Below, in pieces: positions 5,425 to 12,535 of a DNA stretch of 64,000 bases; positions within the stretch are counted from its first letter, which is position 1, and the number at the start of each line of letters is the position of its first letter. The stretch is from the NCBI RefSeq assembly GCF_006345805.1, contig NW_021832221.1:124001-188000 (forward strand), given 5' to 3'. The notes beneath the pieces are model-generated. The model searched no databases. It was not told the DNA's origin and was given only the letters and a program-made list of their open reading frames with translations. This DNA comes from Octopus sinensis (taxonomy: Eukaryota). Both the position numbers and the translations under genes were made by a program.

Positions 5425-5503
5425 GTTTTTGTTTGACTATTGCATCCATACGCTTTTTTCCACTTGTTCATTTCTCACTAATCTTCTCATTTTGAGACCA
5501 ATC
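5425..5503. repeat. 79-bp direct repeat, left flank of MULE-A (long TSD)
   Basis: Identical to 7007-7085 and directly abuts the MULE terminus. Confidence 0.92.
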
Positions 5504-7006
5504 CGGTGCCAGACAACTCGCCTACAGGCGAGTTGTCCTTGAACTCGCCAATAACAAGAACGGACAACTCGCCTAGGAAGAAAACAATAAAAATTTTATA
5601 TGTTAGAGAAAATAAATAATTTTATTCTGTTTTAAAAGAAGTGTACTTAGCAATGATTCTTAAGAAATCATCCGTTTCAAATTCTTGGTAGTGATAACAA
5701 ATTACTTTCAGTTCTTCTTCCTTTTTAAAGTCAGATTTAGGTAGTTCCAATTTTCCGCACTTCGCTTGACACATCCTCACATACTTTTCTTCTTCTACCA
5801 CACAAAGTACATTAATTAGATTTGTCAGGTGAGGATGCGCGGTTAGAAAAAAACTATTAAGAACCCGATGCCAAGATTCTAGTACATTTGAAGTTCTTGG
5901 AACAGATGATTTGATCCTTTCAAAACATGACCAAAATGAAACATCATAACTTGGCGATTCACCATCAAGTCCGGGAATAAATTGTTTTTTGAAATATTCC
6001 AAAAATTCATCTAGCTTTGTATCCTTTTCGGTCATTTCTGCATAATTAAAGCAGATTTTTTCGAATTGGAAAAGAACATCCTTCTCATCAATAAAAGCCA
6101 GAGAAAAGCAATCTCTGATAATCTGGTGTTGCCACTCTTTATCTTTGTATTGTACACAAAGTCCCTCGGCTTGGACTCTCCTCCAAATCATCTGCCCAAG
6201 ATGAAAGTTGCACCCCGACACCCTAGCCGAAGTAAAAACTGCAGCCGAAGAGTTAATTAGCCCCTTTTCAAAGTCCAAAACAATATGTTCTGGGTCACTG
6301 TCAGTTAGGGTTTTGACCTCATTAAAAAAGTGCGTATAGCACTCTTGCGTTTTATTCGCCAAAAGCCCGAAAACACAAGGCCAGTAACTACCCAAATATT
6401 TGACAAATATCGTCACCAATTGTTGAAAATGATTTGGGACACTTTTAAATGTTCCATCAACAATCCAAATTTTCGACTTTTTTAGAAAACAAAGCTGAAA
6501 ATCAGAAGCAAAAATGACGTGTCGGTTAACGTCATTGATTCCAGAATCTTTGCGAAAAAACGTTTCACCACGTTTGTTTTTTTACACCCTTCGCTGTTCT
6601 CGTCCAAAATTAACGCCCCCCGACACGTTCGTTTCCGACATCTCCATCTCGTCGTTTTTTCGTCAATGTCCCTATCCTTATTGTAAAGATAGTTGTCCAA
6701 AATTACCACCTCACTCTTTCTTTGGCCTAATATCTTTTTAATTGTAGCCATTTATTAGGATTTAATTTAATTAAAAATTTTAACAAAAAGAAGAATTTTA
6801 AATTAAATTTTTCATAAATAGAATTTTTTCAATTTTTATTTTTACAAAAAACGTCGATTTGAACTATAATAAAATATAAATTGACAATTTTTTCGTCAAT
6901 GTCCCTATCCTTATTGTAAAGATAGTTGTCCAAAATTTTGACTATTGAAATACAAATTTTAATACCCCAAGTATACATTTCTTCCTAGGCGAGTTGTCCG
7001 TCAGCC
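5504..7006 (-). mobile_element. FLYWCH-MULE (Mutator-like) DNA transposon A, internally deleted
   Basis: FLYWCH-like 'NYLYNKDR..RWRCRKRTCRG'. MULE core 'WIVDGTF','VLDFEKG','GCNFHLGQ','RTSNVLESWH'. Termini ggctgacggacaactcgccta (5') and cggtgccagacaactcgccta (3', reverse complement). Confidence 0.92.
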
Positions 7007-7085
7007 GTTTTTGTTTGACTATTGCATCCATACGCTTTTTTCCACTTGTTCATTTCTCACTAATCTTCTCATTTTGAGACCAATC
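7007..7085. repeat. 79-bp direct repeat, right flank of MULE-A
   Basis: Identical to 5425-5503. The sequence derives from an RTE-like LINE 3' end (shares a motif with about 2892-2914). Confidence 0.92.
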
Positions 7086-8039
7086 TCCGGTGGTTCAATC
7101 GGTCAGGAAAAGACTAGGACTATGGAGTCGAATATTCCTCCACGGATATCACTTTTATGAAGACATTTTAGACCAATTCAAGGTTTTTTTAATCCAAACA
7201 AGTCTAACGAGTCTAAATTTTACAAAGACTAGTTCTGTCATTTTGCCTTGTTTTTTTATTGTCAATGATCAGATGGGCCATTACACGGATAAGCACAGTA
7301 AACTAAGCACAGTAAGGTCAAGTTACGTCGAGTTCGTCGGTCTGTTCGCCCTGTCAGGATTTGTGATATGTGAGGTCATCCAACCCGTAACAATAATATT
7401 AACCCAAAAATAAAATATTATGTTTTATCTGAAACTTAAAGTTCTCTATTTTTGTCAGCTTTATAATATTTCCAAAAAATATTATGACTGTCCGAAGATC
7501 GAGTTTTTTTTCTTAAGAATTACAGTAAACCATATGAGCCATACAACCATTTTTAATTAATTTTATCTGTTTTGATTGTTGTATCAATTCTTATTTCGAC
7601 AAACTCATTCGCAACAAAAATGTTATCCCGTATAGTAAAGACTGTGGATACTTTCAGTTTCGACAAAGCGTTTTTTCCCTTAAAAATAGAAAGGTTTTTG
7701 TTGATAGTATTCTTCTTCAAAATAATTTTAGCTTCCATGTAAAAATATAAAACAGGAAGACTATTCAAATAAAGACTTTAATTCGATTTTTACTAAGATG
7801 AATTTGGAGGCATCGTCAAATTTGAAAATCAAAAAAAATTTATTAACAAACTTGAAACAATTCTAGAACTAAATTAGCTCCCCACAAATGAAAGGAAATT
7901 TTAATTTAATCATTCTGAGTTAATTAAATTAATCGATGAAAATTATTATAATTATGAACATGATTAACATCACATGGATATGCTGTTACAGTTTGAATCT
8001 TGGCAGTTAATTGTTAATTGAAGAGGCAAAAAAGTTCAA

Positions 8040-8300
8040 AACTAATCAGTGATCTTGTAGGTGAGATCTTTTAATATCGAAATTTTCCTTTGTAGGTTAT
8101 ACTGTTTTAATATACACGCTTCGTTAATTTATATTAGTCGGTTACCACATAACCCACCTTTTTAAAAAAGATTTCAGACCCATCATTCTAATTGAATGTA
8201 CTTTTAAAAAAAGACTCCTGTCGTATCATAGTTAAGGAAACAGACTTTTCAATCGCTGATTGTAATGTTAATTCCTGTAAATACAGTTTGAATCTTAGCA
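8040..8300 (-). mobile_element. LINE remnant related to positions 1-130
   Basis: Shares 'aaagactcctgtcgtatcatagttaag' and 'aaatacagtttgaa' with the window start. Confidence 0.55.
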
Positions 8301-9946: not shown

Positions 9947-10963
9947 CAGGAAATACCGCCTGAATGTTATGTCGCGAACAATAACTTTGTGCCTTTGCTC
10001 AAATGGTCATGTTTATTTCCAAATTGATTGATCATTATTGAAATGACTGTTTGTGGGTATGCGGTTGTTATGACTTGAATTTATATATTATTTCGCGTCT
10101 AATTGACTGCTGTAGCAACCATTTTTTATTGAAATGTTTAAATTAGCTTTAAAGCTAAATAAATAAATATTGTAATGTGTTTTTATTTCAATAGTATAAT
10201 TAATTAACAAAAATATCAGAAATTTTATTATAGACACATTAAATAAACACTTTTTAATTATTTATTTTATTCCACTACTTTGGTAAAAAGTCCCCATTAG
10301 GCATAGACTATCTTCAATAAGTACTCTTCACAGATCATGCTGATATTTACAAATTTAATTAAACAAAATCAATTTACACCAACTTTTGATTAAAGTACGA
10401 TTTTTCTTGTATGTCTAAGCACACAGTTGTTAAGCATTCTTTCTTCTTTATGATTTTAATTTATCTCTCGTGTTATCTTCGGAGATTCTATTTTGGGGAA
10501 TCAATATTCACCCAATTGTCGGACATGATTTCAATTTGTAAGTATAGTAATTCGTAAGGTTAGGGGAACTATTTATTTTTAGTGCTAGTTAACTTTTTTG
10601 GGTTTCATAATCCATATGAAATATCAAGAGCGGTGTGATTTACTAAGAGAAAGAACAAAATAGCCCTCAATAGGTACTCGGGTAAATAGCGATTTCATAA
10701 GTCACGGGAAAAAACGGATATAACTGCAAGAGGATCACATCGAATGCTAATAAAACCAGTTTTAAGATGAATATAATATCCAGACCTCCTTGACACCATT
10801 ACGCGTTGAAGGTCTAAGTTCTGGCAAGACTTTCCATGTTTTCCGATTGTTTAATAAATGTGGTTAGCAAAATAATTGCCATATTTGTTTCAAACATAAC
10901 ATCCGCCTTGAAAAAGAGTCATCACGAGCCTTGATCTCCTGAGATGTGTTGTGAAAAAAGGAT

Positions 10964-11042
10964 CTGACGCTGTGTACAAAAAGTATAAATTAAGATTTGT
11001 AAGTAAAGGAATTATTAAGAATTTGATTTATCTCTATTAAAT
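10964..11042. repeat. 79-bp direct repeat, left flank of MULE-B (long TSD)
   Basis: Matches 12457-12535 with one substitution (ggaatt vs gaaatt) and abuts the MULE terminus. Confidence 0.92.
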
Positions 11043-12456
11043 GGCTATGCGACAACTCGCCTACTTAAAATAAATAAAAAATTTTATTTTTACCAGATTA
11101 AATCTAATTAATTAAAATTTCAACAATTTTTTTACTTTAATCCTTAATATGACTGACTTTGAACTGCTTAAAAGCCAAAGAGGTGGCAAACTTTTACTAC
11201 ACCGGAACTATTTGTATAATACAGATAGAAAAAAAGACGGTCTTACTTATTGGAGGTGCAGAAATCGAGAATGCAGGGTGAGGTGCACGGTGGATGCTCA
11301 AAACAAGTTGAGCACAAAAAATGCTCATAATCATGGCCCCTTTGAGGATCATGAGATAAAAAGCATGAAACTAGTTTCTGACCTGAAAGATTCCGCAAAG
11401 GCGTCAGAAGACAGAACTATGAATGTGGTGTCAAGAAGCCTCATTGGAGCCAATGTTGACGTCATTAAAATCTTGCCAAAGGAACGTTCATTGACTCGTC
11501 TCGTTCAACGGGAAAGAGAAACACTGATACCAAATTTTGTTCCGACCATTCCTGAAATTCCTGAAAGTTTGTGGTATAATGATCGGGGCGAAATTTTTTA
11601 TCGCAAGGATTCTGGAATTAATGATGTAAATCGTTACGTCATTTTTTGTTCGGATTATCAGATTGACATTTTGAAAAAATCAGATGTCTGGGTTATTGAT
11701 GGTACCTTTAAAAGCGTCCCTAATCAATTCGAACAAATGATTACAATACAAGGAAAATACTTAGGTAAATTCTGGCCTCTTGCGCACGTTCTTTTGCTCA
11801 ACAAAACAGAAAATTCCTACTGTGCATTATTTGAAGAAATAAAGACACTTGTTACTTCACCAGCAAGTATTTTAATTGATTTTGAAAAGGGGTTAATTAA
11901 CTCCACAAAATCAGTTTTTTCGTCGTCTAATGTATTTGGCTGCAATTTCCATTTCGGCCAAATCATATGGCGGAAAATACAATGTCTTGGTCTTGTGGGA
12001 GCCTACAAAGACGTTTCATCGTGGGAACGAAAATTATTGAGAAAATGCTACCATTTAGCTTTCATCCCTGTGGAAAATGTTTTAATGGAATTTGAAAAAT
12101 TTTCTCTTGATGCGACAAAAAAAGAAAACAACCAACAGATAATGAATTTTTTGGTTTATTTTAAATTTGGCCAGGGAAGAACAAAGACTTTTTGTGAAAA
12201 TGACACAAATTAAGTCAGGAAGGTATCTTGAAGTGTCTGCGACAGACTGCAAAAAGGAACTTGAACTGAGAATAGCATGTGAAAATTTTCATGAATTTGA
12301 AGTAGATTGCTATTTTAAGCTAATTGATGGTTTGATTGCTTTAAAAGTTCAGAATAAACAGTAATTGTTTTAAAATTTTATTTTATTTACCTTTAAAATA
12401 TTTTTCTTCGTAGACGAGTTGTCGCCAAAAAAATTTAGGCGAGTTGTCGCTCAACG
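11043..12456 (+). mobile_element. FLYWCH-MULE DNA transposon B (deletion removes the final catalytic Glu region)
   Basis: 354-aa ORF 11149-12213 with FLYWCH ('YWRCRNRECR..HNH'), 'VIDGTF','LIDFEKG','GCNFHFGQ'. Termini ggctatgcgacaactcgccta ... taggcgagttgtcgctcaacg. Confidence 0.93.
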
Positions 12457-12535
12457 CTGACGCTGTGTACAAAAAGTATAAATTAAGATTTGTAAGTAAA
12501 GAAATTATTAAGAATTTGATTTATCTCTATTAAAT
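12457..12535. repeat. 79-bp direct repeat, right flank of MULE-B
   Basis: Copy of 10964-11042 (78/79 identical). Confidence 0.92.

Follow-up and report, generated by a model that had tools for sequence, protein, structure and literature searches.

A FLYWCH-MULE family with 79-bp target-site duplications in an octopus assembly, and a possible nucleosomal basis for their length

How much target DNA can a Mutator-like element (MULE) duplicate when it inserts? The length of a target-site duplication (TSD) is usually taken as a superfamily signature that depends on how far apart the two active sites lie along one helix, and a fixed TSD of 79 bp breaks this rule by almost ten-fold. The question is raised by a 64,000-nucleotide stretch of the Octopus sinensis assembly GCF_006345805.1 (contig NW_021832221.1, positions 124,001 to 188,000; hereafter the window), which holds two FLYWCH-MULE elements in opposite orientation. 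An earlier note on this DNA claimed that each element is bordered by a 79-bp TSD and proposed that the transposase may attack adjacent gyres of a nucleosome or act across a fixed protein-wrapped loop. On re-examination, the coordinates of both repeats, their abutment on the elements without a spacer, and the single mismatch were all reproduced. Element 1 lies between identical 79-nucleotide direct repeats (5425-5503 and 7007-7085), and element 2 between repeats that differ only at position 11009 (10964-11042 and 12457-12535). The two duplicated sequences have no relation to each other, and only the first ~35 nucleotides of target 1 resemble another repeat in the window (2881-2922). Short-read contigs have A at 11009, and the mismatch therefore probably reflects an allele or an error in the consensus; we rejected its reading as a sign of the age of element 2.

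The terminal architecture was likewise as claimed in both elements, which share the layout GGCT-N4-GACAACTCGCCTA ... TAGGCGAGTTGTC-N6-CG, and the core GACAACTCGCC has nine matches in the window versus 0.33 expected. Element 1 represents subfamily B (5′ end GGCTGACG, 3′ end TGGCACCG) and element 2 subfamily A (5′ end GGCTATGC, 3′ end GCTCAACG). The transposases of the two subfamilies are 45% identical, and their DNA is 68% identical over 403 bp only. Both window copies are defective through internal deletions: element 1 lacks ~260 bp near 6586-6589, and element 2 lacks ~165 bp at 12165/12166, whereby the catalytic E is gone. The features of the locus are as follows.

5425..5503, no strand: 79-bp target duplication, copy at the 3′ end of element 1; a short-read contig covers 5290-5503 without a difference
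5504..7006, minus strand: element 1, subfamily B FLYWCH-MULE, 1503 bp, with an internal deletion
5504..5573, minus strand: 3′ terminus of element 1, eight non-complementary outer bases and then the 13-bp inverted core; GACAACTCGCC sites at 5512, 5527, and 5563 (the inverted core and two subterminal copies)
5622..6581, minus strand: C-terminal open frame of the subfamily B transposase, 319 amino acids, with DGTF, DFE, CNFH, and the catalytic E kept; Pfam MULE, E 9.7e-14
6482..6751, minus strand: FLYWCH-bearing N-terminal portion of the subfamily B transposase, severed by the ~260-bp deletion
6986..7006, minus strand: 5′ terminus of element 1, GGCT-N4 and the 13-bp core
7007..7085, no strand: 79-bp target duplication, copy at the 5′ end of element 1
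10964..11042, no strand: 79-bp target duplication, copy at the 5′ end of element 2; a short-read contig covers 10487-11042
11043..12456, plus strand: element 2, subfamily A FLYWCH-MULE, 1414 bp
11149..12213, plus strand: truncated open reading frame (ORF) of the subfamily A transposase, 354 amino acids, FLYWCH and MULE without the catalytic E
12413..12456, plus strand: 3′ terminus of element 2; it contains the outer GCTCAACG and the inverted core twice
12457..12535, no strand: 79-bp target duplication, copy at the 3′ end of element 2

A contig from short-read run X2 backs the 5′ end of element 1: it fits 6967-7006 and then continues into other sequence. Element 1 also carries an exact 50-bp internal duplication (6655-6704 and 6888-6937), and in a short-read contig 49 bases are missing at 6891-6941, which means that copies without the duplication exist elsewhere. 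Just upstream of target 1, at 5375-5376, the resident repeat lacks 80 bp relative to its paralog L121; a gap of 76-79 at this site is found in at least seven paralogs, and the window form is backed by a short-read contig. A deletion the size of one superhelical turn (80 bp) lies 50 bp away from a duplication of that size.

Flanking duplications of other copies

Further copies were gathered from loci around matches to the 5′ and 3′ terminus patterns and to the transposase, with duplicated loci counted once. Distant homologs in simple-repeat-rich DNA (L169, L177, and L178) and two further loci (L179 and L180) were excluded from the repeat surveys, and three chromosome-scale matches to the 3′ pattern (L089-L091) were dropped as chance, having no other family feature. 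This yielded 20 independent insertions whose two ends lie within a single locus; the remaining pattern matches are one-ended fragments. The earlier note had named a sharp peak in a histogram of flanking repeat lengths as support for its claim, and a peak at 78-80 bp is indeed present. Twelve of the 20 two-ended insertions, drawn from both subfamilies, have a duplication of this class (the two window elements, L031, L032, L037, L038, L039, L048, L058, L139, L170, and L186), including a 195-bp miniature inverted-repeat transposable element, L139. The longer copy of the duplication measures 79 bp in 11 cases and 80 bp in one. Six of the 79-bp pairs and the 80-bp pair consist of identical copies, and the other five pairs show 1-3 substitutions and 0-4 gap columns; over all 12 pairs, the two copies differ at 0-7 positions. 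Thus, 79-80 bp is the length in 12 of the 13 two-ended copies that have any TSD. Three copies missing one element end still hold end-anchored repeats of 61, 73, and 43 bp, and one 79-mer is common to a 5′ junction (contig C12468) and a 3′ junction (contig C12597), with five substitutions. Among the 13 duplicated sequences, none is related to another.

The claim of a uniform length stood for these 12 insertions but not for the whole set. One copy, L035, has an exact 10-bp TSD, and a paralog in the window matches its empty site at 95%; no duplication at all is found at seven of the 20 (L041, L043, L046, L047/51/55, L049, L053, and L147). These eight insertions count against a single-length form of the proposal, and the family therefore has two modes rather than one. 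The long-TSD trait is genome-wide and extends over two divergent subfamilies.

Could the repeats be something other than target DNA? Repeats of the long terminal repeat (LTR) type are part of the element and common to its copies, whereas those examined here differ at every locus. Moreover, the empty sites with one 79-mer that the earlier note had called for were found as paralogs for two of the 12 sites: repeats among the fetched loci run from flank through one copy to flank unbroken, at 84% and 92% identity. Because these paralogous empty sites hold a single, uninterrupted copy, the 79-bp repeat is target DNA, and the notion that it is an LTR-like part of the element or a chance segmental repeat, for which no point in favour was found, is refuted by them and has practically no probability left. 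An assembly artefact, in which 79-base overlaps were left untrimmed at heterozygous insertions, has in its favour that half of the duplications (6 of 12) are identical and exactly 79 bp long and that 79 is a common assembler k value. Short-read contigs from three runs of one sample, possibly the assembly's own source, match the flanks and 79-mers of both window elements. Those of run X1 end at exactly 5503 and 11042 and resume at 7056 and 12506, 30 bases before the ends of the second copies, which places a branch where each 79-mer ends. These contigs are also compatible with an artefact in two respects, in that they are unbroken across the start of each 79-mer and that no piece among those listed contains a junction between an element end and a 79-mer, neither element being bridged. 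However, untrimmed overlaps do not account for copies that differ by 1-3 substitutions and by non-homopolymer insertions or deletions of 1-4 bp (L032, L039, L139, and L170), for a duplication of 80 rather than 79 bp, for a target split between two contigs, or for one insertion that has the same junction on each of two contigs (L183/L186). They also fail to explain why a target bias (see below) is present at both contig-left and contig-right junctions and why the assembly's second MULE family, with a transposase 22-25% identical and terminal inverted repeats (TIRs) of 261 bp, has an exact 8-bp TSD in all four complete copies (from six loci).

The survey of direct repeats argues in the same direction. 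The window's contig, rich in other transposons, served as an unbiased control over 198 kb; 17 direct repeats of 25-400 bp passed the filter there, and apart from the two at the window elements none is a near-perfect repeat of 79 bp. In 656 kb of overlapping, family-selected loci, 12 of the 30 repeats listed have alignment lengths of 79-87, and 11 of these abut family ends. The refutation by assembly overlap that the earlier note had envisaged is contradicted by the diverged copies, the occurrence of both 79 and 80 bp, the cross-contig target, and the 8-bp TSDs of the sister family. We consider an artefact very improbable and are highly confident that the fixed long TSD is real.

Several other loci have unusual structures. 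The exception in the family-selected survey is an exact 79-bp direct repeat around a 1.8-kb composite insert (L161:1748-3720 and L162:1249-3220, contigs C12605 and C8853) made of other repeats and a 3′-truncated subfamily B copy; the insert's ends lack the family termini, and chance, aberrant activity of the same transposase, or another long-TSD element may lie behind it. Rearranged subfamily A pieces, both direct and inverted, at L149 (C9082:376800-383400), L043/L142, and L058 suggest nested or aberrant transposition. Three deleted subfamily A copies (L033, L056, and L147) have in common an internal tandem duplication (145 bp, spacer 10 bp). Copies of the second MULE family (L163, L165, L167, and L168 on contigs C12462, C1794, C12470, and C9073) are 2.3-2.5 kb long and have seven non-complementary outer bases before the TIR, one end reading GGTATGC, which is near the GGCTATGC of subfamily A.

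Relationship to known transposons

Pfam finds FLYWCH and MULE domains in element 2 and a MULE domain in the C-terminal frame of element 1, with MULE (PF10551) above cut-off and FLYWCH (PF04500) at E 2.4e-12 in element 2. Across 110 homologous sequences, D185, D246, C267, and E378 are invariant and H270 of the CxxH motif is nearly so. A naturally intact subfamily B ORF of 462 amino acids is present in locus L159; the full transposase has ~462 residues, and the full element ~1.55-1.85 kb. The family termini consist of the 13-bp inverted core plus subterminal copies, and the inverted stretch reaches ~68 bp in some copies. The family therefore has the Asp-Asp-Glu (DDE) domain with D, D, CxxH, and E, the N-terminal FLYWCH domain, and the terminal inverted repeats of the MULE superfamily, whereas a TSD of 8-11 bp is found in one of the 20 two-ended copies (the 10-bp case). 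Thus, the transposase is a MULE by descent and the element departs from its superfamily in TSD length. Judged by its protein, the family is a Phantom-like FLYWCH-MULE cut-and-paste transposon.

The closest comparison is with the Phantom/Muta group, the Phantom clade being group 20 of PMC6446971. According to the sections that deal with them, Muta1 of Aedes aegypti has a TSD of 8-9 bp and MULEs in general have 8-11 bp (PMC6446971, PMC5499845), and Muta1 is described as excising via hairpins on the flanking DNA and performing concerted strand transfer (PMC5499845). As far as these descriptions go, the octopus-assembly family resembles this group in its single ORF with FLYWCH and MULE DDE domains, the CxxH motif, a conserved W before the catalytic E, and inverted termini with subterminal repeats. 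It differs in its 79-80 bp TSD and in a TIR core of merely 13 bp that is preceded by eight non-complementary outer bases. The predicted model of the 462-residue transposase (mean predicted local distance difference test score, pLDDT, 95.8) has its best fold match in ISCth4 of the IS256 family (E 2.9e-6). These transposases (PDB 6xgx, 6xg8, and 6xgw) are the top fold matches but are prokaryotic, share 12% identity with the family, and align with a whole-chain template modeling (TM) score of ~0.3. ISCth4/IS256 transposases produce a short TSD.

Long target duplications are known from other kinds of elements. The bacterial DDE elements IS1549, IS1634, and IS1630, which belong to other families, generate long duplications of widely varying length. 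Among retrotransposons, a 126-bp TSD is cited for the R9 non-LTR element of rotifers and long variable duplications for Dualen LINEs (long interspersed nuclear elements) (both as cited in PMC9977147). As summarized there, R9 and Dualen match the family in having exceptionally long target duplications but use target-primed reverse transcription, R9 being specific for ribosomal DNA and Dualen variable in length; the family, in contrast, is a DDE DNA transposon with a fixed length and unrelated sites. Literature searches on Mutator or DNA transposons with long TSDs (also with 79 or 80 bp given as the length), on TSDs of microsporidian MULEs, and on gyre-related TSDs returned no description of the trait, although subscription journals or Repbase Reports might hold a note on the family. 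A fixed 79-bp TSD in a MULE family therefore appears to be undescribed so far.

Protein homologs at 35-65% identity exist, and the nearest with a name is a hypothetical protein of Dictyocoela muelleri (41%). A metagenome scan for the TSDs of relatives gave two loci at 30% identity (L179 and L180), whose contigs end inside the terminal repeats; they are distant FLYWCH-MULE relatives with foldback termini of 15-bp tandem repeats. A pattern scan of viral contigs returned 33 single matches, none with a transposase beside it, and a scan of viral proteins for relatives found none.

Candidate mechanisms for a 79-bp stagger

For a DDE transposase, TSD length is described as the stagger between the two attacked phosphates (PMC5499845). 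We favour, by a narrow measure and on the grounds of length, phasing, and geometry, the possibility that the 79-bp TSD arises through strand transfer across the gyres of a nucleosome. The transpososome would join its two ends to opposite target strands usually 79, and sometimes 80, nucleotides apart, and gap filling by the host would then create the duplication. Its two active sites, presumably built for phosphates ~30-38 Å apart over 8-10 bp of straight DNA, would instead hit two exposed phosphates at an equal distance on neighbouring gyres. In the simplest placement, these would lie ~39-40 bp on each side of the dyad, near superhelical locations (SHL) -4 and +4, so that the two-fold axes of nucleosome and enzyme coincide. 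Nucleosome cores would be entered without lifting the DNA off, and when the same transposase acts on free DNA, a short TSD of the ordinary kind would result, as the 10-bp copy may illustrate. More speculatively, the two 79-nucleotide gaps left after joining may account for the many copies with a lost end or a partial repeat.

The geometry was modelled on an idealised superhelix with assumed parameters (24 parameter sets, staggers of 12-145, dyad-symmetric placement). A stagger of 8-10 bp on straight B-DNA computes to 29-39 Å. On the superhelix, both scissile phosphates face outward and lie 28-39 Å apart only at staggers of about 76-81, the full span over all 24 sets being 74-82, and at staggers of 78-81 when the helix has 10.2-10.3 bp per turn and the superhelical turn 78-80 bp. 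A gyre-to-gyre contact at ~80 nucleotides is also reported from RICC-seq (PMC11312488).

The targets themselves show a nucleosome-like pattern. When 13 reconstructed targets were compared with 1500 random sets from the window's contig by using a fixed-phase 10.3-bp template over 147 bp, AA/TT/TA phasing gave z 3.5 (P 0.0007; the range over the 147 bp is z 3.1-3.5), and leaving out the junction zone lowered this to z 2.5 (P 0.008). Phasing is also present within the 79-bp duplication (z 2.0-2.8). GC dinucleotides run in antiphase (z -1.8), a period of 10.25 fits best, and positive contributions come from 11 of 13 sites; a free-period test on A/T sets gave P 0.003-0.07. A/T dinucleotides peak ~6, 15-18, 26, 36, 46, 54, and 67 bp from the centre, a phase that is expected where the centre is the nucleosome dyad. 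The 13 targets thus fit AA/TT/TA phasing of a nucleosomal kind centred on the duplication. A weak outward bias of G/C followed by T-T-T is found at both junction types (G/C at position 1 in 41 of 68, with positions picked post hoc). When the 12 sites were scored with a matrix derived from 48 other junctions, P was < 1e-4 at 5′ ends, 0.0003 at contig-left junctions, and 0.003 at contig-right junctions.

Several points weigh against cross-gyre joining. The geometry model was built post hoc from assumed parameters and takes no account of active-site orientation, and with free placement it yields a second window at 85-89 bp, a length not seen in the data. The fixed-phase test was made after the phase had become apparent in the data, with n = 13 and several dinucleotide sets tried, and the phasing P values are therefore optimistic; shifting the centre by 10 bp fits almost equally well. 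Outside the 79-mer alone, phasing is not significant (z 0.8-1.5), and therefore any protein that wraps ~80 bp would fit. The junction bias is weak at 3' ends alone (P 0.06) and not significant in the most conservative both-ends test, which takes the per-site minimum (P 0.19). Seven of the 20 two-ended copies show no duplication whatever. No extra domain attributable to histone binding is visible in the transposase model. Finally, integrases studied on nucleosomes are described as using short staggers or preferring linkers (PMC13582839, PMC5481204). In the account given there, the prototype foamy virus (PFV) intasome engages nucleosomal DNA near SHL 3.5 with a 4-bp stagger on one gyre. It resembles the proposal as a DDE enzyme working on nucleosomal DNA but differs in cutting 4 bp apart on a single gyre after the DNA has been lifted off the histones.

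The adjacent-gyre attack put forward in the earlier note draws indirect support from phasing and geometry; a loop wrapped by the transposase is a less probable alternative. In that case, a transposase multimer or a non-histone partner would wrap ~80 bp of target, and distant active sites would cut the ends of the loop. The confinement of significant phasing to the 79-mer accords with this, as do the several subterminal binding motifs in the termini, since such repeats are said to promote oligomeric binding in Muta1 (PMC5499845). Yet the protein is a single 462-residue chain of two domains with no visible wrapping domain, the 10-bp copy is not readily explained, and the agreement of 79-80 with both one superhelical turn and the geometric window would be coincidence; we regard such a loop as unlikely, if deserving of consideration. 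A two-step reaction is a further candidate, in which the transposase would join one end, and a nucleosome barrier or some host factor one turn away would determine where the second strand breaks or where strand-displacement repair stops. The stronger target bias at 5' than at 3' junctions is in its favour, as are the exact 79-bp repeat around the composite L161/L162 insert and the 80-bp deletion 50 bp from target 1. So is the asymmetric action of the related ISCth4 transposase. However, lengths set by repair should scatter, and 79 was observed in 11 of 12; the bias persists in pooled 3′ junctions, 21 of 36 of which have G/C at position 1 (P 0.005, positions post hoc); and the fetched DNA contains no tandem duplications of 78-80 bp, such as excision footprints might leave, among 27 matches of period 40-130. 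This two-step scheme seems improbable to us.

Should joining across gyres prove true, it would be a new use of chromatin by an integrase, possibly a new chromatin-integration mechanism in a known superfamily. We see an even chance that a eukaryotic DDE clade, of an age that allows for subfamilies at 45% identity, has switched to cutting across two nucleosome gyres, with a 10-bp fallback on free DNA. Each insertion would then be a base-pair record of nucleosome position in a poorly known parasite lineage (see below), and the enzyme might serve as a tool for mapping nucleosome dyads, a counterpart of Tn5, which avoids them. TSD annotation geared to short repeats may overlook such families, and some MULEs listed without a TSD merit re-inspection.

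Genomic setting

The assembly spans 2.7 Gb and has chromosome-scale contigs (C1-C29), but the family is found on unplaced contigs only (C1153-C13496). All 30 matches to the 5′ terminus pattern lie on small unplaced contigs (a reversed control pattern gave 0), and the chromosome-scale contigs hold only distant transposase homologs at 24-38% identity. The window is dense in genes and transposons and includes a CDKL-like kinase gene, an SDHB-like 4Fe-4S gene, and TOP2. The kinase gene lies between the two elements (8800-9950, minus strand) and has introns of ~25-30 nucleotides, one measured at 27. In the part of PMC13644364 that treats them, introns this short in animals are reported for myxobolid myxozoans and a dicyemid only, and FLYWCH-MULEs are described as expanded in myxozoans (bioRxiv 10.64898/2026.02.11.705288). 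Unplaced contigs, tiny introns, and gene density together indicate that the window and the family probably belong to a co-assembled animal parasite with a compact genome. A TOP2 search gave 66-70% identity to many animals and did not place the lineage. A microsporidian origin, suggested by the best named homolog, seems unlikely given the SDHB-like gene and the 27-nucleotide intron in the window; microsporidia are not known to have succinate dehydrogenase (SDH).

Other inverted-repeat elements in the window lie at 39032-40122, 27013-28942, 21392-25218, 49185-49877, and 40695-50046. For two of these, the earlier note's statement that other transposons in the window have normal TSDs agrees with inspection by eye, which gave 5 bp for the TGT...ACA element at 39-40 kb and TA for the CAGT...ACTG element at 27-29 kb.

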